From NCBI GenBank assembly GCA_024613925.1, contig GCA_024613925.1_4713.1: a stretch of DNA of 64,000 nt; one strand, 5' to 3'. The position numbers were made by a program, and so were the translations under genes. The DNA is from a phage. The notes under the pieces were generated by a model. The model made no database searches and was not told where the DNA came from. It saw only the letters and a program-made list of their open reading frames with translations. Within the stretch, counting starts at the first letter, position 1. Each line of letters begins with the position of its first letter. Shown piece after piece: positions 4,659 through 64,000 of the stretch.

Positions 4659-4756
4659 ATGCAAGGCATCCCGCCGAAGCGAGACACCTTGCACTAACGG
4701 AAAATATTCGCGTTACCTTCTGAATCGGAGACTCAGAATGCGATGCTAAAGCATGA

Positions 4757-5545
4757 TTAGAACGCTAAGCCATCAAAGGCTACGGACGGATCATCGTCGT
4801 CATTTGCGCTTGGCGCATCCCAACGGGTATCAGGGGCCGCTGAAGCCGAACTTGATGCGTTAGAGTTACCGTTGTACTGGCCGTTACCAGCATTACGGTT
4901 ACCGCCGCCGTTGTTATTGTTACGGTTATAGCTATTGTTGCCATTACTTACGCTACGGCTTTCACCGTCGAAATTGGTTGCGAGGATGCTCGGCAACACC
5001 GCACGATGAATACGTACAAATTCCAACGCACAGAGCGGAGAAACAACCCCGATCTGTAAAGGTTGACCGGACTCATCAACCAGAGCGTGGAAACGCGGTG
5101 GCTTGAATACGAATTGGATGTTCGGTTTTTGGTACGCGGTTACAGCGATATATACCGAACCATCATCGTTCTTACCAACCCATGTTGTACTTTCGGTAAC
5201 CTGTTTCTTCTTACCTGGGTTATTGCGATCGTCGATAACCTTTTCGTTCTTCATCGCAAAACGTTGGCCTGGTTTACCCTTAGCAACCTGCTCGAGGATC
5301 GCAAGCAGGTTATAGAACGCGTATGAGCTCATGCGTGCCCAAATGCTTTCAGCGCGACCCTGCTGGTCTTTACGACCAGTGTAAACCGTGATACGCGGTT
5401 GATTCTTAGCAACGCTAATTTTCAATGAGGGGATTGAATTACCGCCCTCAACCTTTTCGTCCGCCCACAGTTTCCAGTTGTTGTCGTCATACGCTGTAGG
5501 AATAATGTTTCCTTGTGGTTTACTGCCCGAATTCCAATTGCTCAT
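4757..5545 (-). CDS. hypothetical protein with Asn/Gly-rich low-complexity tail and acidic C-terminus (SSB-like tail?)
   Basis: 262-aa ORF; GAGG RBS 7 nt upstream; C-terminus ...NNNNGGGNRNAGNG...DDDDPSVAFDGLAF reminiscent of SSB linker plus acidic tip, fold not verified. Confidence 0.5.
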   Translation of the reverse strand: MSNWNSGSKPQGNIIPTAYDDNNWKLWADEKVEGGNSIPSLKISVAKNQPRITVYTGRKDQQGRAESIWARMSSYAFYNLLAILEQVAKGKPGQRFAMKNEKVIDDRNNPGKKKQVTESTTWVGKNDDGSVYIAVTAYQKPNIQFVFKPPRFHALVDESGQPLQIGVVSPLCALEFVRIHRAVLPSILATNFDGESRSVSNGNNSYNRNNNNGGGNRNAGNGQYNGNSNASSSASAAPDTRWDAPSANDDDDPSVAFDGLAF

Positions 5546-5618
5546 TTTCAGCCTCGTTACGTAGTGTGAATCAATTTCTGGTTCAGATGATAGTCAATAT
5601 TAGTTAAAAATTACAGCC

Positions 5619-9914: not shown

Positions 9915-10712
9915 TTAACGTGTTCTCCTATCCCGATGCGTATACGACTGAAGACCGATGTCCATATGCGGTAACGTTAGCGTCTGCCAGATCTGTCGTG
10001 CGTAGCGATCAAGCGTATGATCGTCAGTAACACAATCGACGGGTTCGATGAGGTGAGTCGTATACTGGCTTTTCTCAGAGAAAGGTTCGAGGTTAGCTGT
10101 ATCTCCTAATCCGCTTTTCACCGTGAAGACAAGACGTGTGACTATCATCGCTTTATGTTGCTGTTCATTATAACGAAGGCTGCGGTATACTGCATAGCTC
10201 CCTCCTTTTAAGCTTCGGGTATAACGAAGGTCGGAGGTCGTCTCGGAAATCTGATACAGCATCCAATCCAACGTATCTCGCCAGTACGCATCATCCACAT
10301 CAGGAACCGTAATACCGTACCGCGTAGGCAGCAATTCTAAAAGCAATTTATAAAGTCCGCGACGCAAGCCATGCTCTTCTGTTTCCGACAAGCCGTTTCC
10401 AACGTAACGTGAAATACGTGTACGTAAATACGTACGGATGAACATATTCGCCATCAGTGTTTTCACTCTGCTACTGGTATCCTCAAAGCGATCAACGCTG
10501 AAACTCGTTTCAATCAACCGTCCATTAAAATACAATGCGGCAACATACATCGCGTTATTACTATCACGTTCAATGTTTAAACGGCCGCAGATATTGGCTG
10601 CGTCGTTCATGGTAAATTCTAATTTATCGTGTTCGATACGATAGATAATATCCTCTTGGGTTGCTAGGCTCGCAATGCGACGATAGCCCGGAGAAGTACG
10701 TTTTACACTCAT
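9915..10712 (-). CDS. hypothetical protein
   Basis: Track ORF 9915..10751 trimmed to ATG (MSVKRT..) with AGGA 5 nt upstream; the track start ATG lies inside the TTTATGCCG motif. Confidence 0.45.
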   Translation of the reverse strand: MSVKRTSPGYRRIASLATQEDIIYRIEHDKLEFTMNDAANICGRLNIERDSNNAMYVAALYFNGRLIETSFSVDRFEDTSSRVKTLMANMFIRTYLRTRISRYVGNGLSETEEHGLRRGLYKLLLELLPTRYGITVPDVDDAYWRDTLDWMLYQISETTSDLRYTRSLKGGSYAVYRSLRYNEQQHKAMIVTRLVFTVKSGLGDTANLEPFSEKSQYTTHLIEPVDCVTDDHTLDRYARQIWQTLTLPHMDIGLQSYTHRDRRTR

Positions 10713-49932: not shown

Positions 49933-50007
49933 TCACTTTTCCTTTTAATGTCAGAGCATCGCATTCTTGACGTACGTCAAGAAGGTATTGCGTTCAGCGA
50001 AATAAAC

Positions 50008-50033: not shown

Positions 50034-51143
50034 TTATTTAGCGTCGTTAAAGTAAATATCAACAGCTCGTTCCGTTGCGTAGAGGAGACCAAGATTCACA
50101 GTCCCAACCACTTCCGGTGAACCGATGATACGGTTAGCGATACTGGTGCCACTGAAGATAGCATCAAGGGTGTGCCCGTCTTCGGTTTTGTTCACACCAT
50201 GACCCACGGAAGAGACAACGGATTTCGCTTGTGCTGCGAAGGTACCTTTATCACCCATCCCCGCACCAAGGTCGTAACGCATGAAAATACGGATAGCGAT
50301 CTGGTTCTCGCCTAACGGATTGCCGTCTATTCTCACGTTACTATTGTTGATACGCCCTGTTGCTGCCTCGTTGAGTTTCAGTTCCTTAACGCGTTTAGCT
50401 CGCGCTTTATCCGCTTCACCGACGAGCGCCGCCATGGTTTCACTCATATCCTCAATCTGAGCACGGTACAGTACATCGATCTGTACAACTTCACCATGAA
50501 CGTCAGCACGTGGGTTATACTGACTCATACGACGTAATGCTTCAACGGCTTCCTGACTCTCATCACTCAGATCGGTTGCAATCGGTTCTTCCAGTGTTGC
50601 AAGAATCGTTCGTGGTTCAACGTGATCACCGATTTTCACAAGACCACGAATATTGAGATGGGCGTCAACGATGAGCGTACGGCTCTTAATCGATGGTGTT
50701 ACGAGACGATCGGCAAGATTGTCGAAGATATACGAACTGTCCTCGTGCGTCTCTGGAATATCCAGAATACCGACAAGAGACAGCACACCTGCGCGCCAAA
50801 CAACCTGGCCTGGGTTCCACCAATCGCGTTTGAAATAAAGACGATGGAAAACCACCACATCCTGATCCTTAACGCGATCCCCGACTTTATAATCGGTAAT
50901 GAGATCGTGAGGATAATACTTACCTGGCCCTTTCCCGATTATCGTACCGAGCTGGAAAACCTCTTCCCCTAACTCTGGATCGTCGTATTGTATCGTAAGC
51001 GCAGTTTTGGTGACCTTCTTAACAACACCATCGCCTTGGGCGGCGGCCGCGAAGAGTTTACCAACACGATGCGCGATAACAGTCTCACCGCCGGTGCGCC
51101 ACGGTTGTACATCGTAACCCTCAGCGGCAATCATGCGGTTGTG
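50034..51143 (-). CDS. RNA polymerase beta subunit (virion RNAP candidate), proposed exon 2
   Basis: Track ORF 50034..51164 starts at TTG with no RBS; from HNRMIAAEG it resembles beta ANRALMGANMQRQ, then TGGETVIAHRVGKLFAAAAQGDGVVKKV vs [26 protein letters not shown], and GDKGTFAAQAKSVVS vs GDKMAGRHGNKGVIS (E. coli beta recalled). Confidence 0.5.
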   Translation of the reverse strand, partial: HNRMIAAEGYDVQPWRTGGETVIAHRVGKLFAAAAQGDGVVKKVTKTALTIQYDDPELGEEVFQLGTIIGKGPGKYYPHDLITDYKVGDRVKDQDVVVFHRLYFKRDWWNPGQVVWRAGVLSLVGILDIPETHEDSSYIFDNLADRLVTPSIKSRTLIVDAHLNIRGLVKIGDHVEPRTILATLEEPIATDLSDESQEAVEALRRMSQYNPRADVHGEVVQIDVLYRAQIEDMSETMAALVGEADKARAKRVKELKLNEAATGRINNSNVRIDGNPLGENQIAIRIFMRYDLGAGMGDKGTFAAQAKSVVSSVGHGVNKTEDGHTLDAIFSGTSIANRIIGSPEVVGTVNLGLLYATERAVDIYFNDAK

Positions 51144-51656
51144 CTGTATACCTATAAATACCAATCTCTTGGGCGAATTTAGTTCTTATTCAACATAATC
51201 GTACTATTACCAGAATAAGACTGAGATTAGATTGTTCAGATAAGGTCGTTAATCTTATCCCGGAGGCGACGATAGGCACATCACCTCCCGCTTGCGCTCT
51301 CACGCAAGAGCAGACTATATCACATCTCGTTTCAAACGGTGCTTCTTCAGCACCTCAACGAGAGTTCACTTCTTCCCAGCGCATCCAGCGCCATTCTCTT
51401 ATCCAAGGAGAATGCCTCACTCGAGGGGTACAGGGGGATGAATCCCTTAGTCGTTGAACCTTTACCTTAGAACGCTTCACAGCGATCCTTAGGTACTTGG
51501 CTGCGGATTGTCCTTAAGCTATTATCTGTTTTTATAACCATACCGTCTTTCTTTTCAGAATCCGTTTTGGTCGATAACAGCGATGGATGTCTTCGCAATT
51601 CAGTGAATCTCATCTACATGTCGCCACATAGACGGACCCTGCTATTAAAAGCGTTA
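51144..51656 (-). ncRNA. candidate group I intron in RNAP beta gene, inserted at conserved HDD/ANR motif
   Basis: 513 nt with no ORF; minus-strand P AAUUGCGAAGACAUCC (~51583-51602), Q AAUCCGCAGCC (~51495-51513), R GUUCAACGACUAAGG (~51436-51466), S GUGAUAUAGUCUG (~51305-51326) in order; UUGCG/CGCAG and GACUA/UAGUC complementary; exon 1 ends in U followed by UAA; G precedes exon 2; splice keeps frame (..DRDD-HNRM..); P1 pairing not identified. Confidence 0.5.
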
Positions 51657-54600
51657 ATCATCTCTATCAGCAGCAGGTACTGCAAGCGCCGACGTACTCA
51701 TTATTGACGAGCTACCATCCGTTTTCTCGTCGTAAGGTTTCGTTTCACCGTATACAGACACAATGTTTGCGTTAGGTGCGAGGTAAGCAGAAATACCTAC
51801 GTCCCCACTATCCTTCGTACCTTCGGATACAACACCAATGTCCGACTTGTCGTATTCACGATCGCGTGCGCGTCGAAGCGATGTCTTTGAACGACCCCCG
51901 ATACCGGTCATCGTCGCTTCTTCACCCTGCTTGATATCCAGCATCGGGTTGGTTTCATCGATTACGATGGAAGCGCTGTCGTCGAGAATCTGGTTCCAGA
52001 CGCTTACCGGACTGATTGAGATTTTCTGGCGGTTTCCTTGACTGCTGTTCTCATTCTGACGAATAGCGCCAACCAGATCCTTATACACCAACTCAGCGAA
52101 CTTATCGTACGTTTTAAAACGTTGGTAGTTCACATCGTTCGTGTTAGGTGCCCAATCATCCAGAAGCAGTTCGACGGCACGCAGTAACAACATGGCGAAA
52201 TCGGTAGGTTCTCCCATGTTCTGCAGCAACGTACGGCTTACCGGATCAACGAAAAGACGCTCCATGAGTTCAAGTTCGCGTAAATGGCGAACCTTAAGTC
52301 CAGCCCCATCGACAACGTTAAAATAGATATCTCGATTGTCAAAAGCGCCGCGAGCGTAACCAATGTAGTTACGGTATTCGTTAAACCCACCCAGCAACAA
52401 CGTCGTCATGCGATCGTCTTTACTGAAGATCAGACTTTCGTCGTCAAAGCTCACCGCGAATTCATCGGGTGCTAACCCCATACGAGAGCCGCGAGGTACC
52501 GTACGATAGTTCGCTTTAAGATGTTCTAATAACGGGGTAAGCCCACCCAGATAACTTAGAACAACACCGACCGGAATACGTACACCCATGAATTCAAGAT
52601 CGGCGGCTTCGATCGGCATCTTAGCCGCATTGATACCGAAGAAATCAGGGAACGTCCCTACAGGTGTTGGTGTTTGTCCTGACTGACAGATATAGAGCTG
52701 ATTGCGTTTATCGATTGCTAAGAATTCACCCAGCGTGTTACGCGCAAACGTCAGGAGTCCTTCGGCTAACTGTTCGTTGAACCGATCTTCCCCAATGAAC
52801 TCCGGCAATGTCTTTGTATCGAGACGTATATCCCAATCAGCAAATTGGATTTGGGTATAGTTGCGTGCAAGCACAGCGAAGTAATACGGAACTTTGACAG
52901 CTGGATCAAAGACGTTACCACGTTTCAACGTGGTTAAGGGTGAGGACTTATCGTAATACATCGCCGTAAGTTGACGTGTTAGCCAACGACCCGCATTATT
53001 AACGACACGCTCTGAACGTTTAACAAACACCTTACCGTAGGCGGTACTCAACGCAACTTCAGATGACGATACCTTTCTAATAGGTTTATCAACACGTTGT
53101 TTACGCATCCGGTATTTGATGCCGTTAACGACATAAATGCCGTCCTTACGAACCTTCGGCAACATCACCGGGAACGTGGTCGGGACACCGCCTACAGGAG
53201 CCAGTTTAATCGTGATGACTTGATAATCCCCCATCACGTCAACAACATCTTCAACTTTATATCCCGTGACAGGGTAACCTGCCTGCTGTACCGCAACGAC
53301 GGCAGCTGCGATGTCCTTTTGCATTACGTGTTCAACGTAATGTTTATCCCACACCGCAAGCGTCGATTTACACAGGCTCTTATCGACGATAACATCCGCT
53401 TCCGGCATAACCTTTGCAGGCGCTAATTTTGCGGCTTTTGGTTTAACTTCAACATACTCAGCAAGTGTTAATCCAGAACCGTCGGGTGCTTCGATTTCAT
53501 GGATGGCGTCAGCATTACGCATCGCTGCTTTATATTGGACACCGCTTAACTGACCCGCATCCGCCAGATCGCTCGCGCGTACCAACACCGCATCCGATAA
53601 CGACTGAATATATTCGCCATGCGTTTTCGGTAACGTTGCCGCGTCAAAGACATCAACCTTTTCTTCTTCGGTATCGTCGGTAACGACTTCGAAGAGATCG
53701 TCGGTAATGTCCTGATCTTCATCGGGCTGGAAATCTGGTTGTACTTCTACCCCGGGTACTTCACGGACATCTTCGAACGAGCGTTCTACAATGGCGTTCC
53801 ACGCATCGGCATCATCGTCTTCATCCGACCCACCGACCAACTCCGCTTCTAACTCGTCGGGATCAAGAACGGTAGCGAGATCCTCACCGTTAGGAAGCAC
53901 GACGTCGCGATCATCATACTCCGCATCCGGGCTGTCCGCAAGAATATCTCGCTCTTGACGAAGAACCTGTTCCTCTTCTTGTTTCTGTTCTTCTTCATTC
54001 GCGCTCTGCGACCACAGACGTGTTACCGCCATCATCCAACGACGTTGGAAGGTTTCAAGTGTCGTTTTATCGAGTTCTTCCCCTTCCTTCACAAGTCCGG
54101 TACGCCATTCTTCCAGCAGGCCGAGATTCAGCGTAAAGAAGTACACACCGTCTGTAAATACGATGTTAAGCTTATCCAGCGTGGCTCTGTCTAACGAAGC
54201 CATCGTGCTGTTCTCACGATCGGTTCCCAACCAGCGGAAGAAGTCAAAGAACGACAGCTCCTCCGGTGTGGCGAAATTCATGAGGTTATTACGGGTCGGT
54301 GCCTGTTGCGTGGTACGCATCAACGAAATCTTCGGCAATGTTGACGGTATACGGAACAACAAAAAGTGTTGGCGATCGCTTTGCTGTGCGATTTCGTTGG
54401 CTTTCGACCAAATTGTTTTACGTACGTTGAACCATTCATCATACCAACGGGTGAGCGTTGGACGATAAATGTACATGTGGTTAAGATGCGCGTAGTTAGC
54501 AACGATCTGAGCGTTGATGTTTTTCTCCACCGTGCTTAGATCGGTAACCAAACGAAAACGACGATGTGATGCACGATAATCCAATTTCGCTCGTGGGAGT

Positions 54601-54866: not shown

Positions 54867-56513
54867 TTAGGCTCCACGAGGTCCCGTTAAGTTGCGTAAT
54901 AGGAACGCAACCGTATCGTAACCAATATCAATGTTGAATTTATTTTTACCACTTACCCAGAAAGCTCGCTTCTTGTGCGAGTTGGTAATTTCGTCAATAG
55001 CTTCCATGGAATAAAGAACGTTAACCGAGACCGTATCACCGTCGAAGTCCGCCCCGAGGCCAGCTAGAAACACCTGGCCGACTTGGGTCGTTTCTACAAA
55101 TGACGCTTTCAATGACCAATCTGGGTATTCCCATGCCATATACCGATCGCCTTCTAACGGTTGCCAATCGACACCGAGTTCTCTTCTTGGCTTCGTGTTA
55201 ACTGTCGTCCGCACATAGCAGGTTAACGGTATAACTGATTGCATTCCCGATACTGGATAACGTGTCACCATCGCACCGAGTTTATTCCAAAGATGATAAC
55301 CGCTCAGATAAACCAATTCGCAGTATGTAACCGGATGAACATTAGCGCCAGGTTTGTTCAGCATCTCTGGGGGTATTTCACTCATGCCACGGAATAACCG
55401 AAACGAATCGTTGTTCACATAGACGAGGCAAAGATAACGCCCATTAACCATGATAGGTTCGTTACGCACACCAGGATCGCTTAGCGTGTTCAGTAAACGT
55501 TCGATACCGTCCCACGTTGTAAAGTCATCGATGGTATCTGGGTCTAACGTGACGCGTTCACGTTCCATCGTTTCGGTATCGATAAGCTCAGCTTCAGTAA
55601 CATCACGAACAAATATTTCCTGCAAAATCCCCGTACGTAATGCGTGCTGTGTGATAGGAAGAGCAGCCTTGCTCATCTGATATAGACCAAGTTGTACTGA
55701 TGTACACGAAGTCTGGTTCGGTGAGCCGAGAACCTCTGTAGTTGGGATGACAGCCGAAATAACGTTACGGGTTGAGTTCCAAACGCGACGTGAACCGAAC
55801 TTCCCTTGGAAGATCCCTTTCTTACCTTGGAACATATCCAACAACAAAGCGTAGATATCGTTGAATGTTCTCTGTAAGCTCCAGCGCTGGCCGTCGTAAA
55901 CGGGATCGGAATAATCTTTTAATCCATCAGGGACGGTGTTAGAAATTGCAAGGAAACGACGATACAACTCCGTGATTTCTTGCTCGCTTTCATACCCGCC
56001 TTCTTTTACTTCTATTTCACGTAAGCCTGCAGGTAATACCAGTAAGTGACGGGTCATCGCTTTGAACATGTTCTCTTCGACAACTTTAATTCGTAGCTCT
56101 CGTTGAGCTGAACCCGTTGAAACGAACTTGATATCCGCGACGTGTTGTGCAAAGAACCCGTATCCTGTTTGTCCTGTTAACGCATCAGACGCAACGAAGT
56201 CGCGTTGTTCAGGATCCCAACGAGCATACGCCTTTCCCGACATGATATCACCATAGAGGTGTTTTAGTCGAATGAGGCGGTCGTAAATGACAGGGTGCAG
56301 GATTTCAACCTTGCATTCAATCACCGCAAATCGACGGTCTCGATCTTCACTACCTGCACTACCAAAGATGGTGTAAGAATAGAAACCATCATCGTGGAAA
56401 TTACCGGTGCTTGGGTCACGAATGCTCATGCTCGTGATCTTGGGGAGAAAACGTAACTGCTGTTTATCGAGGTGTAAAATACTAATGTTAAACGGCTCTC
56501 TGACTTTAGCCAT
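54867..56513 (-). CDS. RNA polymerase beta-prime N-terminal fragment (virion RNAP candidate)
   Basis: Contains intact catalytic motif GADFDGDTVSV (NADFDGD family) and GKKGIFQGKFGSRRVWNSTRNVISAVIP matching [24 protein letters not shown]; track ORF trimmed to ATG (MAKVRE..) with GGAG 8 nt upstream; adjacent and divergent to giant lysozyme-domain gene as phiKZ gp180/gp181. Confidence 0.6.
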   Translation of the reverse strand: MAKVREPFNISILHLDKQQLRFLPKITSMSIRDPSTGNFHDDGFYSYTIFGSAGSEDRDRRFAVIECKVEILHPVIYDRLIRLKHLYGDIMSGKAYARWDPEQRDFVASDALTGQTGYGFFAQHVADIKFVSTGSAQRELRIKVVEENMFKAMTRHLLVLPAGLREIEVKEGGYESEQEITELYRRFLAISNTVPDGLKDYSDPVYDGQRWSLQRTFNDIYALLLDMFQGKKGIFQGKFGSRRVWNSTRNVISAVIPTTEVLGSPNQTSCTSVQLGLYQMSKAALPITQHALRTGILQEIFVRDVTEAELIDTETMERERVTLDPDTIDDFTTWDGIERLLNTLSDPGVRNEPIMVNGRYLCLVYVNNDSFRLFRGMSEIPPEMLNKPGANVHPVTYCELVYLSGYHLWNKLGAMVTRYPVSGMQSVIPLTCYVRTTVNTKPRRELGVDWQPLEGDRYMAWEYPDWSLKASFVETTQVGQVFLAGLGADFDGDTVSVNVLYSMEAIDEITNSHKKRAFWVSGKNKFNIDIGYDTVAFLLRNLTGPRGA

Positions 56514-56758
56514 GGAGACACTCCTCTTTACCACCACCGGCTGCGGCGGTATCATCTGAACACACGAGAGACGTAATGGGTGATGGCGTCACCCATCGCT
56601 TCCTTGCCTGATGCCAGGAAGTTATTAGGTTACGTGCCTGCTTGATAAAATCAAGCAGGCGATGTGTGAAGTTACGCTTCAACATTATCAATGCCGAAGG
56701 TAAGCTTCGTGCATCACGTTCCAACGTAACATGGGAACGTATCGAACTGGAGGTATAC

Positions 56759-59700
56759 ATGGTAGATAAAACCCGTGTTGAGGGTGATGATAATTGGGAT
56801 AACTGGGATGATGACTTCTCCCTGGATCTCGATTTTGATGAGCCTAAAGACGATCGTAAGCCAATAACACGCTTTGCGGTAGGGGCGGTTAAAGGTGCTG
56901 CTGAGGATCTTACTTCCTACGAAAGAATGAAGGAGATCGCCAGAAACGCATTGCCTAAGGGCTACAGCGACGGTATGGATCTTATTGATTCCGCCGTCGG
57001 ATCCACGAAGGAACTATACAATGAAGCCGTTCGTGACGTTCTTCCTAAGGTCCAAAGCTCAAAACGGTTAGCAGCACAACTAACCAAGAAATACCGTGCG
57101 AGCATGCCCGATTTCTCGAAGAAAATTCTCGAGCAATGGGAGCGAGAAGCCAAGGAAGAAGACGAACGTAAACAGGCTGAAGCAGAACTCAAGCAACGCA
57201 TGGCGAGCGCGGGAGATAATGAAATCGCCCGTAAGGTTGCCGAAGCGTTAGGCGAATCAGCAAACCAAAGCGCGGATCAGTTTGCCGAACAGCAAGCAAA
57301 AGAAAGTATCCGTGACGATATCGCTGACAAACGGTACGCTGTAACCAACAAACAAATGAGTGCGATGCAAGAAGGCGTCGCCAAGATGGTTGGTTTCAAC
57401 AATGAATTCGCTGCGCGCTACATGCGTAAAAGCCTGGAACTGAAATATCGTTCCTTAGCGATTCAACGTGCAAGTTTTGATCAGCATAAAAAGTTAGCCG
57501 AAGTCTATATCGGTTTATTACAAAACATCCAGAAGAACACGGCTTTACCTGATGCGGCTAAAGCGAAAATGTCGGAAGAATTCCGTCGTAGTGCATACCA
57601 ACGTTTCTTTGGTAATACGTTAGATGCGATGAGTTCTTTCGAGAACCGTTTCTTTGCCGATGTTAAGAAAAACCTATCCAGGAACATCGTCGGAGCTTTA
57701 TCGGGATTCGCTGAAAGCAGTCGAGACGCACTGTCTGGCCTCGCCGAAGTGAAAGACGGTATGTCCATGATGGATGGAATTGGTTCGGAAGGCGATATAA
57801 AGGAGATGAAGGGGAGAATGCTGGGCCAGCTTATCGGCACGGCAGTAACCCCATGGCTTGCCGAGAAAGGATCGACAGCACTACGTGATTTTGCAAAACG
57901 CCATCCTAACTCAAAAATCGCATCCGCAATAAAAACCATTGATGCTGGTGGCGATGCGGCCGCATTTACCAGTCGTAACATCGGTAAAATTCTTCAAGAG
58001 GACATTCGGAAAAACCAGTTTAATCTCAGCGATCCGTGGTATAAACGTTTCTTACGGGATACCGGAAGCATGATGTTCAACATGGACACCGGACGTAACT
58101 TCCGTGTGATGAACGACACCGCTGAAACACTGGCGGAGCAAACGTCTTTCGACGGTTTAACTTACCGCAGCATCAATGAAGTTATTCCTGGTTTTCTTGC
58201 ACGCATTCTGAAAAGCAGTGAAGGCATCCGTACGGGAAACAGCGATCCTGACTACGAGGTCTATGACAGCATCAGCGGGCAATTCGTGGCTCAGCGCACG
58301 CGTGAACAAAGCGTCAATGACACGCTGTTTAACAAACGTACATTTGGTTATTACGCCAGCCGTTTCAACGAGGTTATCTCGGTCATCGATCCCGATAAGA
58401 AATTATCGGATAACGCAAGAAAAGGATTAGCAAAACAGCTAGCTCGTGACAGCGACGCAAACATTGCATTCGACCCGGCTCGTTTTACGGATGAAAGCAA
58501 CTTCGATCGTAGTATCGACCGTGACGCTATTAAGGAACTTTCTAATTACTTCCGTAACCGTTACGGTATCGACTACGTACCCGATGAAAAAGGACAACGC
58601 CATCAGGTCATTGGAAACCGCGGGCAATATTACACGGAACGTAACCGAGCTGACCTTCGCTACGGTAATTTGAAATCGTTACAACCGGATATCCAGCGTA
58701 ACCTTAACCTACTGAAACGTACTGGTGACGTCCAATATCTGGAACGGATTGGGATTGTAACGAGAAATAGCGACGGAAGCTACTCGGTTAATCACGATCG
58801 GTATTTCTCTGAAATCGATCGATACATCGACCGACCGGAGTACGCTGAACGCAGTGATGTTAATACGCGATTAACCGCTCAGGAAACAAGAGCGCTGGCG
58901 CTGGGTTATCGTGACGCAAAACCATCAGTTGATGACGTGCAAAATGCGGGTCGGCCACACATCGATCGTAAGGCTGTTGGAACAGTAACCGTTGATGAAA
59001 ACATCGGTTACGATAAATGGTGGAACGACACAGGTGTTATCACCACATCGCTTGAAGAACAGAATCGAGCGTGGCAAGAGCTTTATCTCGAAGCGTTATC
59101 TGAAGCATCCGAACAACGTACTGAAATGCTTGCGTTGCTGAAAGCCATTTCTGAGAAAGACTGGTCTAATAACGTTTCGTTGGATGGCGAAGATGTACCT
59201 GAAGGTGCGGCACCCATTTCATTTATCGATCGCGCCAAACAAAAACTCGGTGCACGCAACCTCTTTAAAGGCGGTCGTAATCTCCTCTGGAAAGGAATTA
59301 AAAATACCGCACGTCTGGGTGTTAAAGGCGCACGCTGGGGTGCAGAACGCACGTTGGGCAGTTTGGTAAATTCTGGCCGACGCATTATCAATTTCAACCG
59401 TTTTGTGTTCGGTGCATTATCCAAGGTTGATCAGGTTCCGTTTGACATTTACGTTAAAGGGGAATCCCAGCCACGCATATTGGCTGCCAAACTTCGTCAG
59501 GGGTTATACTTCGACGAAGCGACAGGAAAAGCTGTAAAACGGATGAAGGATATCAAAGGTCCACTCGTTGATGCGGATGGAAATATCGTAATCAGTAACG
59601 AGGATATCGAGAAAGGGTTGGTCACTCGCGCTGGTCGTGCCTTTGAGAATTCAGGACTTAAGGCGTGGGCACGTGAAGGTCTTAATGGAATCACAACGGT

Positions 59701-62700
59701 ATTAAGTCTGCCACGGATGTTAAAACGCGGTGCGGTCGAGATCTACAAACAGCTTGACAAAACACCCGACGTTTACGTCAAGGGAGAATCAACGCCTCGT
59801 CTGTTGTCCACGGTGTTAGCAGCGGGTGGGTATTTCCGTCGGTCGGATGGACAAGTCATCAAAAATCTTGAAGACATCGATGGTGATGTTGTTGATGCAC
59901 AAGGTAACGTCGTACTTACGCTTGCCGATATGCAGAAAGGACTTGTCGATAAATACGGTAAAGCGGTTCGTCGCTTAAAAGAAAAGCTCATCAACTTCGG
60001 TGTAAAAGCTTTTACGTTACCGTTAACGCTGCTGCGTAAGACGAAGGACATCCTTAAAGCCCTTCCAGGTAAAACCGTTAACGGTCTACGACGGATGGGA
60101 TTAAATTTCCAATCACCTGACGCATTACTGGTGGGAACAACGTCGAGCATGGTAGATCGTCTCGATGCGATTTATAAGCTCCTCGACCAGCGTATGCCGG
60201 GAGGCGATAAGGATTACCGCGATTGGAATGGCGATGGTGTTCGAGAAGGATCGTTGGAAGACCTGAAACGTAAGCGCGCGGCCAAGGAAAACGGTAAGGA
60301 TGACACCGGCAAAGATTCCGGTAAAGGAGAAGAAAAGGAGAAGAAACGAGGATTACTCGGAAGCCTTTTCGATATGCTTGGCGATACCGCATTAGGTAAA
60401 CGACTCATGGCGAGTCCGCTTGGAAAAATTCTAGGTGGTCTTGGGGCGGTGTTAAGCGGCGGAGCATCGTTAACCGGATTGTTGGGTAAGGGTCTCATTA
60501 GTGGAACCGGCGCGCTAGTCAAGGGAGGACTAAGTGTGGCAGGATGGTTAGGACGTGGTGCGTTAATGGCGGGCGGGGCCGCATTGAACGCCGTTGGTGG
60601 GTTATCGGGATTAGGTGCATTCCTCATCTCACCTGTTGGGCTTGCTATTGCAGGTGGTGCATTGGCTGCTTATGCTGGATGGAAGATCTATCAGCATTTC
60701 GCCGAGAAGCCTGACCCGATGCAGAAGCTCCGTCTTATTGCATACGGTGCAAAAGGGGACGATAAAGACTTCAATAAGAAGCTGCTTGCGACAGAAACAT
60801 ACCTCACCGACCATGTGGTTATGACCGGGGATACCATCGGATTCGATCCGAAAGCCGATTCTGAAAAGATTCTCGAAATCTGGGAATTGTCCCTGGAAGA
60901 TTCCGACCGAATGAACGAATGGAAACGCTGGTATCTGCATCGTTTTATTCCTGTTTTCGCTCGCGCGTACAAACTCTGGAAAGAGCATATGCCGGACGAG
61001 AAGAAATACATGGAAATGGATAAATATCCAAACGGTGAGAACAAAGTGAAATGGTCGGAAGCGTTTATCTGGCCTTCCGATAGTCCTGACGGTCCGTATT
61101 ACGTCGAAGCTAACCCGTTGGGTTCTTCTGGTGCGACGCGTTATATTGCTGGTCAAGACGTCAAAACCTTGATGCTGAAACAACTCGAAGCCATCAAGAA
61201 AGAGTACCAGAATCAGATCAAACAATACACTCATGATGAGGCTATTGCTGATTGGTCACGGATGTCTGACACACAACGTAAATCCGTTGCGCCTAACGCA
61301 TTACGCGGTCAGAAAGCGTCGTTACGTTTTAACGATAAGCGTTACAACAGCGCTGGCGCTAAAGGACGACAGAAGCTTGACGCAACCGCCGTTATTGAAA
61401 GCGTAGACCGCCGTGGTAGGAAATGGGTTGCTGGTGGATACATCGATGAACTCACCAGTCTCCGTGTTCGCGCGTACGGTATCAAGGTTCCGTTGTTAAG
61501 TCAGATAAAAGTGCTGATGGAACTTGAAGACGCCGTAGAACCCGGCGTTGTCGCTGAAGGTAAAGGTGTTAAATACGGTGGCGATCTTGTTGCGCTCTAC
61601 AAGAAATTCGCGACGAAGTTCGGAAGAGACGTTAACAGCAAGCGGGATCAGGATATCTGGTTTGCTTGGATGAATAACCGTTTCCTACCCGTCTTTTTAA
61701 CCTACTACCAACAAGTTAGCGAAATGGGCGGTCAAGGTCTTCTGTCCGACGTGGTACAGAACCTGAAAGACAGCCAACGTTGGGAAATCGGTGAAGCACT
61801 TGTCGCAACGCAATACCGTGATGAGAAAGGTACACTGCAGCCTGTATGGTCCTGGAATAGTTGTGGTTTCTCCGGTACTGAAGCTAACACCATCAGCAGT
61901 TCAACAAAGAGCCAACTCGATCTGTTAAAAGAATATGCGGATAAAGAGAAGGTTCGTGAGAAGAACGCGGAAGCATCGCAAGAGGATACCGATAAATTAT
62001 CGAAGATCCAAGAGCTGATGATGAAGCAGGCTGGGTACGAGAAGAAAGACGGTGTCTGGCAGAAGAAATCTCGCATTACCGGCGGGATGAGTAACTCCGA
62101 AGCGAATTACAACCCCAGTGGGAATAGGGTGGGTGAAAGCAGCTTTACGGCTTCGGCTACCTCCAATGCGGGATTAGGGTCAACCGGCGATGTTACTGGA
62201 TTGCCTAACATGGGCTTACAGAAACCTGCAACGGGACCAGGTCCTGAAGCTGGACGTCGTGCGCTTGTTAAATCCGCTGTAAAACGCGGCATTACCGATC
62301 CAATGGAAATGGCGATGTTCCTTGCGAATATCGAACATGAATCGGGGAACTACACTCACGTACGTGAGGGGAACTATAAGACACCAGAGCGTCTTAAACA
62401 GGTCTTCCCTTACAAATTCCGTGATGTGCAGGATGCCGCACAGACGATCAGCATGGGGCCGGAAGCGGTATTCGAACGTGTGTACGGTAATCGTAAAGAT
62501 CTCGGAAACACACAGAAAGGGGACGGGGCGAAGTATTTAGGGCGTGGCTTCATTCAGGTTACCGGTAAAGCTAACTACGCTCGTTTGTCTAAGACCTTGA
62601 ATAAGGATCTTGTCAGCGATCCGACCTACCTGGAAACGCCGGAAGGTGCAGCGGAAGGTAGTGTTGCATGGTGGCTCAACCGAGGTAACGTATTACGCGA

Positions 62701-63424
62701 TCCCGCAAAACGGGGTGACGTACGCCAAGTTCGTTATCTGGTTAACGGCGGCTATAACGGATTACGTGATGTTGAACAACGTTCTGCTTATTGGATTCAG
62801 GCGGCTAAGAACGGCACCCTGAAGAAAATGATGGACGAGTTATCAGGGTCAACATCGGACGATCAAGCTGAAGGACCGACCACTGCCGAACAGGTGAAGA
62901 ACGAAGCAGCACAAGAGGCAAACGGAACACCTGCTGTAAGCAACGATCCGCAAGCTCCAGCGCCTTCTACCACCCCTGAAGCTAAACCGTCTGCGGCTGC
63001 CGGGACGGCTCCAGCGCCAGGAGAAGCATCGCCGACACCTGGAAGTTTCGAAACAGCAAAAGCCGCGGCAGGACAACCGACATCAACTCCAGCACCTAGC
63101 GATTTGCCGTCAAACCCGGGCGCAAATCGAGGGATATCGGTTCCGAATACGCCTGCACAGGTTGCGCAGTCTGCGACACAAACATCGGTTGCAAGTGAGA
63201 ACTTCTACGGCAGCGCAGGTGAAATTCTCCGACAGCAGCTGACCACACAGCAGAACATCGAGAAGAACACCGGTAGAACCAATGAACTTATTTCGGAATT
63301 AATCCAAGCCGTTAAAGGTTCTTCTATCGGTAAGGGTTCTGCAGGTCCTTCTCAACAACAGACGATGTCGCTACCTAATCGTCCGCAAGGAATCTCTCCA
63401 ACACGGACAAGGTACGCACAGTAG
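56759..63424 (+). CDS. giant virion-associated protein with glycine-rich membrane-like segment and GH19-type lysozyme domain (phiKZ gp181-like; tape-measure/cell-puncturing candidate)
   Basis: Track ORF begins at TTG (56642); ATG at 56759 has GGAGG 6 nt upstream; ~2221 aa; lysozyme motifs FLANIEHESGNY ... GDGAKYLGRGFIQVTGKANY; Gly/Ala-rich hydrophobic stretch ~100 aa; internal ~106-aa tandem repeat (YVKGES.PR.L...); Pro/Thr/Ala-rich linker near C-terminus. Confidence 0.6.
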   Translation: MVDKTRVEGDDNWDNWDDDFSLDLDFDEPKDDRKPITRFAVGAVKGAAEDLTSYERMKEIARNALPKGYSDGMDLIDSAVGSTKELYNEAVRDVLPKVQSSKRLAAQLTKKYRASMPDFSKKILEQWEREAKEEDERKQAEAELKQRMASAGDNEIARKVAEALGESANQSADQFAEQQAKESIRDDIADKRYAVTNKQMSAMQEGVAKMVGFNNEFAARYMRKSLELKYRSLAIQRASFDQHKKLAEVYIGLLQNIQKNTALPDAAKAKMSEEFRRSAYQRFFGNTLDAMSSFENRFFADVKKNLSRNIVGALSGFAESSRDALSGLAEVKDGMSMMDGIGSEGDIKEMKGRMLGQLIGTAVTPWLAEKGSTALRDFAKRHPNSKIASAIKTIDAGGDAAAFTSRNIGKILQEDIRKNQFNLSDPWYKRFLRDTGSMMFNMDTGRNFRVMNDTAETLAEQTSFDGLTYRSINEVIPGFLARILKSSEGIRTGNSDPDYEVYDSISGQFVAQRTREQSVNDTLFNKRTFGYYASRFNEVISVIDPDKKLSDNARKGLAKQLARDSDANIAFDPARFTDESNFDRSIDRDAIKELSNYFRNRYGIDYVPDEKGQRHQVIGNRGQYYTERNRADLRYGNLKSLQPDIQRNLNLLKRTGDVQYLERIGIVTRNSDGSYSVNHDRYFSEIDRYIDRPEYAERSDVNTRLTAQETRALALGYRDAKPSVDDVQNAGRPHIDRKAVGTVTVDENIGYDKWWNDTGVITTSLEEQNRAWQELYLEALSEASEQRTEMLALLKAISEKDWSNNVSLDGEDVPEGAAPISFIDRAKQKLGARNLFKGGRNLLWKGIKNTARLGVKGARWGAERTLGSLVNSGRRIINFNRFVFGALSKVDQVPFDIYVKGESQPRILAAKLRQGLYFDEATGKAVKRMKDIKGPLVDADGNIVISNEDIEKGLVTRAGRAFENSGLKAWAREGLNGITTVLSLPRMLKRGAVEIYKQLDKTPDVYVKGESTPRLLSTVLAAGGYFRRSDGQVIKNLEDIDGDVVDAQGNVVLTLADMQKGLVDKYGKAVRRLKEKLINFGVKAFTLPLTLLRKTKDILKALPGKTVNGLRRMGLNFQSPDALLVGTTSSMVDRLDAIYKLLDQRMPGGDKDYRDWNGDGVREGSLEDLKRKRAAKENGKDDTGKDSGKGEEKEKKRGLLGSLFDMLGDTALGKRLMASPLGKILGGLGAVLSGGASLTGLLGKGLISGTGALVKGGLSVAGWLGRGALMAGGAALNAVGGLSGLGAFLISPVGLAIAGGALAAYAGWKIYQHFAEKPDPMQKLRLIAYGAKGDDKDFNKKLLATETYLTDHVVMTGDTIGFDPKADSEKILEIWELSLEDSDRMNEWKRWYLHRFIPVFARAYKLWKEHMPDEKKYMEMDKYPNGENKVKWSEAFIWPSDSPDGPYYVEANPLGSSGATRYIAGQDVKTLMLKQLEAIKKEYQNQIKQYTHDEAIADWSRMSDTQRKSVAPNALRGQKASLRFNDKRYNSAGAKGRQKLDATAVIESVDRRGRKWVAGGYIDELTSLRVRAYGIKVPLLSQIKVLMELEDAVEPGVVAEGKGVKYGGDLVALYKKFATKFGRDVNSKRDQDIWFAWMNNRFLPVFLTYYQQVSEMGGQGLLSDVVQNLKDSQRWEIGEALVATQYRDEKGTLQPVWSWNSCGFSGTEANTISSSTKSQLDLLKEYADKEKVREKNAEASQEDTDKLSKIQELMMKQAGYEKKDGVWQKKSRITGGMSNSEANYNPSGNRVGESSFTASATSNAGLGSTGDVTGLPNMGLQKPATGPGPEAGRRALVKSAVKRGITDPMEMAMFLANIEHESGNYTHVREGNYKTPERLKQVFPYKFRDVQDAAQTISMGPEAVFERVYGNRKDLGNTQKGDGAKYLGRGFIQVTGKANYARLSKTLNKDLVSDPTYLETPEGAAEGSVAWWLNRGNVLRDPAKRGDVRQVRYLVNGGYNGLRDVEQRSAYWIQAAKNGTLKKMMDELSGSTSDDQAEGPTTAEQVKNEAAQEANGTPAVSNDPQAPAPSTTPEAKPSAAAGTAPAPGEASPTPGSFETAKAAAGQPTSTPAPSDLPSNPGANRGISVPNTPAQVAQSATQTSVASENFYGSAGEILRQQLTTQQNIEKNTGRTNELISELIQAVKGSSIGKGSAGPSQQQTMSLPNRPQGISPTRTRYAQ

Positions 63425-63435
63425 TCATTAGTTAA

Positions 63436-63454
63436 GGGCGGGAGATTCCCGCCC
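63436..63454 (+). terminator. hairpin GGGCGGGA-GATT-CCCGCCC after giant gene
   Basis: 7-bp GC stem followed by TCTTCTTG. Confidence 0.4.
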
Positions 63455-63473
63455 TCTTCTTGAGGAATGTTAC

Positions 63474-64000
63474 ATGGGTATTCTTGTTCAAAACGCCCTA
63501 ATAACCAAACAAGCGTTTTTATTACCTGGCGATAGCAGCACGCTTAGTGCTGACATGATTAAAGCGAGACATACACCGTATTCCTACGATAACGTCGATG
63601 ATACCACCTTAGGTGGGAACTGGGTGCTTAACCCGCCACCGCAATACACCAAATTTGCCGACATCAAAGAACGCCGACGTGCGGTTATGCCGGGATCAAC
63701 AGGCATGGGTCGAGGCTACAGTGAAAGCATTAACAGCTTTAAAGAAGTCGTTACGTTACGATTCGGTAAACCTCGCTTTACAGGCGCAAGTATCTTCTTT
63801 ACTGATTTCTACGATGCGGATGTTGCCGTAACGGTTAAAACCGGTCGCGATCCCGGTATTCTTTATTACGCAGCCAAAGCGTATACCACCGTTCTTTCTT
63901 ACCTCACGCCTCTACCTTACCTGTATATGGTTGGACGTATTGGTCGATATTTCCTGGGTAAACCTACCAGTCAATATTACTATCAAGTACCAACCATGCA
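63474..64000 (+). CDS. hypothetical protein, 3' end truncated by window edge
   Basis: ATG at 63474 with GAGGAA upstream; open frame (MGILVQNALITKQAF..) runs to end of window without stop; absent from ORF track because incomplete. Confidence 0.45.
   Translation, partial: MGILVQNALITKQAFLLPGDSSTLSADMIKARHTPYSYDNVDDTTLGGNWVLNPPPQYTKFADIKERRRAVMPGSTGMGRGYSESINSFKEVVTLRFGKPRFTGASIFFTDFYDADVAVTVKTGRDPGILYYAAKAYTTVLSYLTPLPYLYMVGRIGRYFLGKPTSQYYYQVPTM

Follow-up and report, generated by a model that had tools for sequence, protein, structure and literature searches.

T5 Pb2, mycobacteriophage TM4 Tmp and the staphylococcal tape-measure proteins are long helical proteins of the tail lumen, which bear hydrophobic segments and an embedded wall hydrolase and are ejected to open the envelope. 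In this article we describe a giant gene from a phage (NCBI GenBank assembly GCA_024613925.1, contig GCA_024613925.1_4713.1), which lies at 56759..63424 on the plus strand of a 64,000-nucleotide (nt) stretch, hereafter the window, and is divergent from the gene for the N-terminal half of a virion RNA polymerase (vRNAP) beta-prime subunit at 54867..56513 on the minus strand. Its product of 2221 amino acids (aa; 245 kDa, isoelectric point 9.0) is an ortholog of gp204 of Escherichia phage Goslar, gp181 of phiKZ and gp239 of SPN3US. Goslar gp204 (YP_009820915.1) has the same length when counted from the ATG and the same neighbours; it is annotated as a 'tail fiber protein' or 'putative chitinase' (COG3179), and its neighbour gp205 as an 'RNA polymerase beta subunit'. 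The Goslar virion study found it with 34 peptides and 24.5% coverage, under the label 'Tail protein' (Table S4), and its copy number was estimated at 3.4–8.0 (~5) per virion. PhiKZ gp181 (NP_803747.1) is a structural peptidoglycan hydrolase of 2237 aa, a virion muralytic enzyme; its gene is also divergent from that of gp180 and is followed by that of gp182. SPN3US gp239 (259 kDa) was found to be tail-associated by proteomics of tailless mutants, from whose particles it is missing or depleted, and has been called the tail tape measure, an assignment of function and not the outcome of a length-determination experiment.

We consider it likely that the giant gene of the window is a Goslar-clade member of the gp181 family, which encodes a low-copy, tail-associated virion protein bearing a GH19 domain and would act in the tail lumen in a tape-measure-like or ejection role. 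The region 54867–63424 matches Goslar (NC_048170.1) with 93.4% nucleotide identity over 98% of its length, Goslar being the sole nucleotide-level match to it in the phage collection, and the identity is 95% over the 20 kb around that region. The phage of the window is thus closely related to a nucleus-forming jumbo phage described in the literature (Chimalliviridae), and the gene pair is a close variant of one already known and annotated, in a characterised family and ordinary for its phage family. Given that the gene is annotated in Goslar, that phiKZ gp181 has been characterised biochemically and that an ortholog has been seen in virions, it offers little that is new to a specialist. The order vRNAP beta (minus), beta-prime N-terminal half (minus), giant gene (plus) and tube-initiator gene (plus) was recovered in phiKZ, SL2, Erwinia phage Special G, Salmonella phage 1252 and four metagenomic relatives, and the window shows the same context, with the vRNAP beta-prime gene running away from the giant gene on one side and the tube-initiator/spacer gene downstream on the other. 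For the SPN3US type we examined the synteny in a phage of that kind, Salmonella phage 1252, in which a 2373-aa protein is encoded divergently from beta-prime. An earlier sequence-only reading of the window, made by a model without database searches, had pointed out a resemblance to phiKZ gp180/gp181, and this proved to be true homology with conserved synteny.

Family and anatomy of the giant protein

The plus-strand frame of the giant gene is open from 56642, and ATG 56759, which lies six bases after a GGAGG, yields the 2221 aa that had been read from the sequence; both ORFs (open reading frames) of the divergent pair are likewise real. In support of this start, the 2222- and 2225-aa proteins of relatives with 46% protein identity have their first methionine at the corresponding place, and in a further relative, L007, most of the upstream in-frame extension is deleted. 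Given the GGAGG-ATG arrangement, the L007 deletion and an N-terminus that is conserved in relatives with 46% identity, we rejected the upstream starts, namely TTG 56642 and the GTG used in RefSeq, which in Goslar gp204 lies 31 codons upstream and yields 2252 aa, unlike the 2221 aa of the window protein.

The giant protein is 95% identical to Goslar gp204 at the amino acid level, and its residues 11–1174 correspond to phrog_3201 (5e-291, PHROGs). BLASTP aligned it collinearly with the phiKZ and SL2 proteins (each 2237 aa) and that of Special G (2238 aa) at 24–28% identity (E = 1e-42 to 2e-67), with the phiKZ and SL2 matches (E = 1e-42 to 1e-43; 24–25% identity for phiKZ gp181) running in collinear segments through aa ~1650. 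These alignments take in the N-terminal region, a tandem duplication (repeat A), a Gly-rich segment and a second duplication (repeat B), so that membership of the phrog_3201 family is founded on collinear homology outside the enzymatic domain. The SPN3US-type protein was matched only over aa 29–572, the tblastn match, of 25% identity, being confined to the N-terminal ~570 aa. The 107 homologs collected range from ~1300 to 3850 aa and are mostly of 2000–2900 aa. Four full-length homologs (P0006, P0054, P0056 and P0060) are filed under Caballeronia/Paraburkholderia names on contigs of 143–493 kb, one of them being called 'cell pole-organizing protein PopZ'; these are probably jumbo-phage genomes inside isolate assemblies, with mis-named proteins.

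Structural models were generated with AlphaFold2 (AF2) from 31–32 homolog sequences and are of modest confidence, with a mean pLDDT (predicted local distance difference test) of 54.7 for aa 1–1200 and of 62.5 for aa 1181–2221, in which the Gly-rich segment could not be modelled. The N-terminal part consists of a long α-helical region (aa 35–492, 56861..58234; this and all following features of the protein are on the plus strand), predicted at low to moderate confidence to be 86% helix (AF2 model m692bbf8d5847). It is followed by a globular α/β domain (aa 493–700, 58235..58858), the best-modelled part of the N-terminal half (pLDDT 65–91 in 10-residue blocks over aa 501–690), at whose N-terminal edge lies the most conserved sequence of the family, EVIPGFLxRIL...IRTG (aa 474–493). 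A Foldseek search of PDB with the N-terminal 1200-aa model returned nothing below E 0.7, and no PDB fold match was found for aa 493–700.

Repeat A (aa 889–1102, 59423..60064) consists of two units of ~108 aa, each with a small β-rich module, which lie at aa 889–999 and 998–1102 and match over aa 889–960 against 998–1068 at 46% identity (E = 4e-19); the units begin at nt 59441 and 59765, in close agreement with the duplicated module that had been placed at 59446 and 59764 from the letters. PhiKZ gp181 (L016 8335–15048) has three such units as against two in the window protein, indicating that the repeat number varies in a family of nearly constant total length. The Gly/Ala-rich hydrophobic segment, which the sequence-only reading had likewise picked out, extends over aa 1197–1307 (60347..60679) and has at least two stretches resembling membrane spans: Gly and Ala make up 42% of aa 1201–1300, Kyte-Doolittle windows exceed 1.4 at aa 1224–1242 and 1272–1307, and the G-rich pattern recurs throughout the family. 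Repeat B (aa 1319–1770, 60713..62068) is formed by two α/β domains (aa ~1320–1485 and ~1560–1770) with 10-residue block pLDDT of 69–89 (aa ~1321–1480) and 65–95 (aa ~1561–1770). Self-BLAST relates aa 1319–1405 to 1563–1651 at 28% identity (E = 1e-3), and the motif R..YG...E...W..RF.P occurs in each domain and is nearly invariant, twice, across the family; no PDB fold match was found for these domains. Beyond the enzymatic domain discussed below, the disordered Pro/Thr/Ser/Ala-rich region expected from the sequence was found at aa ~2031–2150 (62849..63316; P+T+S = 30%), and a family-conserved C-terminal helix (aa 2152–2186) comes after it. The giant scaffold thus combines two conserved duplicated modules with a confidently folding core domain that has no match among solved structures.

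The sequence-only reading had also recognised a GH19-type set of lysozyme motifs, and the domain searches agree with it. The domain spans aa 1835–2020 (62261..62818) and contains HESG (aa 1860–1863), HVRE (aa 1867–1870) and GRGFIQVTGKANY (aa 1928–1940). Residues 1836–2057 belong to a PHROG endolysin family (1e-53), and in sequence searches the domain recovered the solved endolysins 9EOI (1.3e-22), 7R6S (3e-21) and that of SPN1S (4OK7, 1.2e-17). Foldseek matched the modelled domain (10-residue block pLDDT 53–92, mostly 66–92, over aa ~1827–2030) at probability 1.0 with GH19 endolysins and with Streptomyces and plant GH19 chitinases, identifying it as a GH19 fold. E1861 of the HES motif, E1870 of HVRE and T1935 of IQVTG align with the same catalytic residues in 9EOI and 7R6S. 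Free GH19 endolysins such as those of SPN1S (4OK7), P. aeruginosa (9EOI) and KTN6 (gp46, 8P8E) share with it the fold and the motif spacing (HES, E nine residues on, and GRG..Q.TG) at 27–31% identity, but these are lysis enzymes of ~200 aa, whereas the domain of the window forms part of a virion protein, close to its C-terminus; for lysis Goslar encodes an endolysin of its own, gp024. On the other side, the Pfam GH19 model (PF00182) scored the domain at 18.2 bits, below its 25.5 cut-off, and an NCBIfam scan of the giant protein gave no match. The Special G ortholog passes the same Pfam model at 47.1 bits, and this model, centred on plant chitinases, fits the phage branch poorly, so that the assignment is based on PHROGs, the PDB sequence search and the fold search. 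We regard the domain as a GH19 domain of the muramidase type, a predicted peptidoglycan hydrolase with a catalytic Glu-Glu-Thr set; since its nearest relatives are peptidoglycan hydrolases, 'chitinase' is a mere family label.

At the position where the proteins of the window and Special G have GH19, phiKZ-type proteins instead carry an SLT lytic transglycosylase domain (PF01464, aa 1885–1978; the muralytic domain of phiKZ gp181 lies at aa ~1880–2040). Further domains at that position among the 107 homologs, for which precomputed domain assignments were combined with re-scans, are Peptidase_M23, VanY with SLT, Phage_lysozyme2 with CHAP, and Amidase_2, always in the C-terminal fifth. The enzymatic module thus appears to be a swappable cassette on a conserved scaffold, and the family presents a clear case of the exchange of wall hydrolases (GH19, SLT, M23, VanY, CHAP and amidase) at a fixed scaffold position, which makes it useful for mining lysins.

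Location and role of the giant protein

Presence in virions, on which the sequence-only reading had staked its interpretation, has been documented for the Goslar ortholog (95% identity) in a published mass-spectrometry study. The Goslar virion peptides map to aa 393–406, 739–753, 771–787, 969–986 and 2102–2124, and as they come from both halves, both ends of gp204 are in the particle. Two features expected of tape-measure proteins are seen in the giant protein, namely a largely helical build with hydrophobic, Gly-rich segments (the low-confidence 86% helix of aa 35–492, and aa 1197–1307), and a gene adjacent to tube and hub genes, as it lies directly upstream of the orthologs of Goslar gp203 (tube initiator) and gp202 (wedge). 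The copy number of 3.4–8.0 estimated in Goslar may be set against the 3 or 6 expected of a tape measure, and with a lumen of ~68 Å (phiKZ) and a tube of ~180 nm (Goslar, 46 layers of 39.16 Å) 3–6 copies would fill only 14–27% of the space. Given the presence of its Goslar ortholog in the virion, and the assignment of the spike to other proteins (see below), the tail lumen is the best placement that we can infer for it, in a tape-measure or ejection capacity; this accords with the literature on SPN3US gp239 and with the tape-measure character that had been read into the Gly/Ala-rich segment, though for the window protein that character is still deduced from its relatives.

We propose that the giant protein would be housed in the tail tube, in a tape-measure-like or ejection role, and would exit the tube upon contraction of the sheath and loss of the spike. 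The GH19 domain might then make local cuts in the glycan strands, and insertion of the Gly/Ala-rich hydrophobic segment into the inner membrane might help to form a conduit for the DNA. A more far-reaching version, in which the protein is a lumen component absent from both recent structural atlases whose conserved Gly/Ala segment, after ejection, not only lines a DNA channel but remodels the inner membrane and seeds or anchors the early phage infection (EPI) vesicle into which the genome passes together with the co-injected vRNAP, appears decidedly unlikely; were it true, the back-to-back arrangement with the vRNAP genes would reflect a shared 'entry module'. The text of the phiKZ EPI-vesicle preprint does not mention gp181.

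Several observations weigh against a lumenal, ruler-like protein. The texts of two 2026 cryo-electron microscopy (cryo-EM) atlases, of Goslar and phiKZ, neither mention nor model gp204 or gp181 and speak of no tape measure; no structure puts the giant protein in the tail lumen, and such a placement is drawn from the orthologs. As a strict ruler it fails, given that 2221 aa at 1.5 Å per residue amount to ~333 nm as against a tube of ~180 nm, making it about twice the tube length if helical, with much of the chain being globular. Further, protein length does not follow tail length, with 2237 aa for 43 layers of 37.7 Å in phiKZ and 2221 aa for 46 layers of 39.2 Å in Goslar, and at most a part of the protein could serve as a ruler. 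Searches of BFVD with the N-terminal model recovered family members first and then only non-significant matches to canonical tape measures (E = 5e-3, probability 0.28). No sequence relationship with T5 Pb2, TM4 Tmp or the staphylococcal proteins was detectable, nor any significant fold relationship (BFVD probability ≤0.28), and the giant protein is 2–4 times longer than these and has several globular domains. Finally, enzymatic action, membrane insertion and ejection are all predictions for the protein of the window.

The alternatives each place the protein elsewhere in the particle. It was first proposed for phiKZ gp181 that it forms the central cell-puncturing needle or spike beneath the baseplate; a review that summarises Briers et al. 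2008 lists it as a 'needle-like cell-puncturing device' and a putative trimer, with which ~3–8 copies would be compatible. However, the baseplate map of Goslar gives all of the hub and spike density to gp13, gp48, gp203 and gp62, the phiKZ atlas gives that of the spike, hub and initiator to gp164, gp163.1, gp101, gp182, gp88 and gp174, and the AF2 models have no β-helix or OB-fold features of a spike. As in both atlases the spike, its cap or hub, and both tube-initiator rings are given to other proteins, the older idea is removed and the placement of gp181 as a needle is very hard to credit and no longer tenable, even though neither atlas places the 245-kDa protein. A role as a tail fibre or receptor-binding protein is suggested by the 'tail fiber protein' label on Goslar gp204, phiKZ gp181 and phrog_3201; that label is apparently an automatic annotation with no experiment behind it, and the protein has a membrane-like hydrophobic segment and a muralytic domain instead of fibre-like repeats or carbohydrate-binding domains. 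Together with its low copy number, this renders a fibre most improbable.

Chimalliviruses inject many head proteins, and the gene adjoins those of the packaged vRNAP, both of which would fit a head-packaged ejection protein comparable to T7 gp16 or inner-body cargo rather than a protein of the tail lumen. Against this stand the absence or depletion of the SPN3US ortholog in tailless particles and its grouping with tail proteins, the 'Tail protein' label in Goslar Table S4, and the downstream neighbours, which encode the tube initiator gp203 and the baseplate wedge gp202; we therefore hold head cargo to be highly unlikely and prefer a tail-lumen protein with a tape-measure-like or ejection role.

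The divergent spacer

Between the two genes lies a spacer of 245 nt (56514..56758), as against the 200 bp of the sequence-only reading, which had the polymerase gene starting at 56555. The beta-prime ORF is open to 56555 (562 aa), but ATG 56513 (548 aa) is most likely its start, given the ribosome-binding site (RBS) AGAGGAG, the start annotated in Goslar and the conservation in relatives with 46% protein identity, while ATG 56555 sits within a conserved non-coding motif at 56543–56561. The spacer is unusually structured, with minimum free energy z-scores of −5.07 (plus strand) and −5.56 (minus strand) against 200 shuffles. In distant chimalliviruses and in the 46%-identity relatives it measures only 30–107 nt (30–75 nt in the more distant ones) and is without the stem-loops of the window, the gp180–gp181 spacer of phiKZ being 75 nt long and devoid of a hairpin leader. 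We aligned the spacers of the window, of Goslar, of relatives with 89% and 85% identity in the giant protein and of two with 46%.

The sole deeply conserved intergenic element in this alignment is a 19-nt sequence, GCGGCGGTATCATCTGAAC (56543..56561, plus strand), of which 17–18 nt are invariant in 6/6 relatives, including those with 46% identity; it is a candidate promoter or 5'-end element and probably marks where the giant gene has its promoter or where its transcript begins. Its 12-nt core, TATCATCTGAAC, has one further exact copy in the 64-kb window (~0.008 expected), at 5581–5592 on the minus strand; this copy is in sense with the ortholog (4757–5545) of Goslar gp176/ChmC, a nucleus-associated RNA-binding protein, and lies 36 nt upstream of the ortholog's ATG. 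It suggests that the giant tail gene and this ortholog have a regulatory element in common. It speaks against a wider role that Goslar 1–50 kb contains no copy of the core, and with only two in the 64 kb of the window, the motif is no general promoter consensus. A sigma-70-like TTTACC-17-TATCAT was set aside, given that it overlaps the conserved motif and that chimalliviruses transcribe with their own polymerases.

Downstream of the 19-nt element the 46%-identity relatives have ~50 nt before the ATG, and the Goslar clade has ~200 nt with at least four stem-loops, which in that clade only would form a leader acting at the RNA level. Both perfect palindromes of the sequence-only reading are exact and beyond chance, but they are two of at least four such structures (all given here on the plus strand). 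Stem-loop 1 (56576..56596, ATGGGTGA-TGGCG-TCACCCAT) has an 8-bp stem and a 5-nt loop, the stem being invariant and the loop changed in L007. An imperfect stem-loop follows (56599..56621, CTTCCTTGC-N5-GCCAGGAAG), in which Goslar, L005 and L007 have a U-G pair in place of the mismatch. Stem-loop 2 (56636..56660, GCCTGCTTGAT-AAA-ATCAAGCAGGC) has an 11-bp stem and a 3-nt loop, and a fourth (56716..56740, ACGTTCCAACGT / ACATGGGAACGT) lies just upstream of the RBS and is absent in L007, which has a 63-nt deletion there. In dinucleotide-preserving shuffles of the spacer (n=2000) a stem of at least 10 bp arose in 0.15%, and two stems of at least 8 bp in 0.05%.

That the palindromes are operators for a dimeric DNA-binding regulator of the divergent promoters, as the sequence-only reading had it, would be in keeping with their perfect dyad symmetry, well above chance, and with their position between divergent genes. 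The comparison of relatives points the other way. In the five distinct versions of stem-loop 2 found among six relatives 87% of the cells stay paired, with three pairs showing compensatory double changes and two one-sided G-U changes, which are valid only in plus-strand RNA. The loop differs by version (AAA, TTT or GGCC-like), so that the half-sites of this palindrome have undergone three compensated changes and its centre, in three versions, has been replaced three times among close relatives. With five sequences this is modest evidence, the observed value being reached by 10/500 shuffles. Moreover, the spacer folds far better than shuffles on either strand and has more stem-loops than the two palindromes, these elements are found neither in the relatives with 46% identity nor in any distant chimallivirus, and hairpins of similar strength are present in other intergenic stretches of the window. 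As pairing is kept by compensatory changes while loops and sequence vary, the evidence favours stem-loops of the plus-strand RNA, in the putative mRNA leader of the giant gene, over sequence-specific operators, which we judge to be decidedly improbable. We also rejected the possibility that the hairpin block is a repeated mobile element, as neither the window nor the phage collection contains a second copy of it, and that the hairpins are terminators, as no T-runs come after them and the flanking genes diverge.

Polymerase genes and other neighbouring features

The divergent gene encodes a 548-aa protein orthologous to Goslar gp205 and phiKZ gp180, which belongs to phrog_2986 (8e-178, PHROGs) and shows 39% full-length identity (E = 3e-120) with SL2_159, an uninterrupted gp180 ortholog of the phiKZ type. 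In PDB it matches the AR9 beta-prime N-terminal chain and cyanobacterial and plastid beta-prime/gamma chains, and it retains the Mg-binding, catalytic DFDGD motif of beta-prime (aa 489–493, codons at 55035..55049, minus strand) in the context LGADFDGDTVS. The subunits of the phiKZ virion polymerase are gp80, gp149, gp178 and gp180, and gp180 is co-injected with the DNA; in Goslar, gp78, gp196, gp205, gp207 and gp210 were detected in virions as five vRNAP subunits. Given the orthology to gp180, the DFDGD motif, the AR9 match and the detection of Goslar gp205 in virions, the earlier label 'virion RNAP beta-prime' is right, and by sequence comparison the product is more precisely the N-terminal half of that subunit, with packaging and injection carried over from Goslar gp205 and phiKZ gp180.

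In the window the beta-prime gene is intron-less at 55047–55086 (minus strand). In Goslar, phiKZ, L005 and L007, in contrast, a group I intron interrupts the codons for aa 476–489, directly at the DFDGD motif, that of Goslar being 2.1 kb long (L001 6181–8264) with the endonuclease-like ORF gp206, and that of phiKZ (L016 5397–5718) being associated with gp179, in the gene order PHIKZ178 (minus), 179 (minus), 180 (minus) and 181 (plus). In SL2, Special G and Salmonella phage 1252 the beta-prime gene is a single intact ORF, with no intron detected at the locus, and the distribution across the family is sporadic and of the homing type.

Downstream of the giant gene a G+C-rich hairpin with a 9-bp stem (63435..63455, plus strand, AGGGCGGGA-GAT-TCCCGCCCT) lies 11 nt past the stop codon and before the RBS of the tube-initiator gene, with no T-run; it is one of nine perfect stems of at least 9 bp in the window, seven of which are intergenic. 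The next gene (63475..64000, plus strand, cut by the end of the window) is, by collinearity with Goslar, the ortholog of Goslar gp203, of the tail-tube initiator complex, and of phiKZ gp182, a spacer ring, these roles being taken from the cryo-EM papers. Elsewhere, a recurrent intergenic motif consisting of TACCTTCT, a short hairpin and AGAATGCGATGCT was seen in the window at ~4700–4750 (plus) and ~49940–49990 (minus) and in Goslar at L010 ~9965–10030, one copy preceding the Goslar spike gene gp013, and the 8-mer TTTATTAC recurs in five intergenic regions; these are possible promoter or terminator signals of the phage. The vRNAP beta gene of the window, the ortholog of Goslar gp207, is split by a group I intron without an ORF (51164–51670; RF00028, 56.2 bits, Rfam match 51291–51658, minus strand), exon 1 ending near 51671 and exon 2 covering ~50034–51163, so that it appears in the ORF list as separate ORFs of 1069 and 376 aa; at the same locus the Goslar gene is uninterrupted and encodes 1448 aa.

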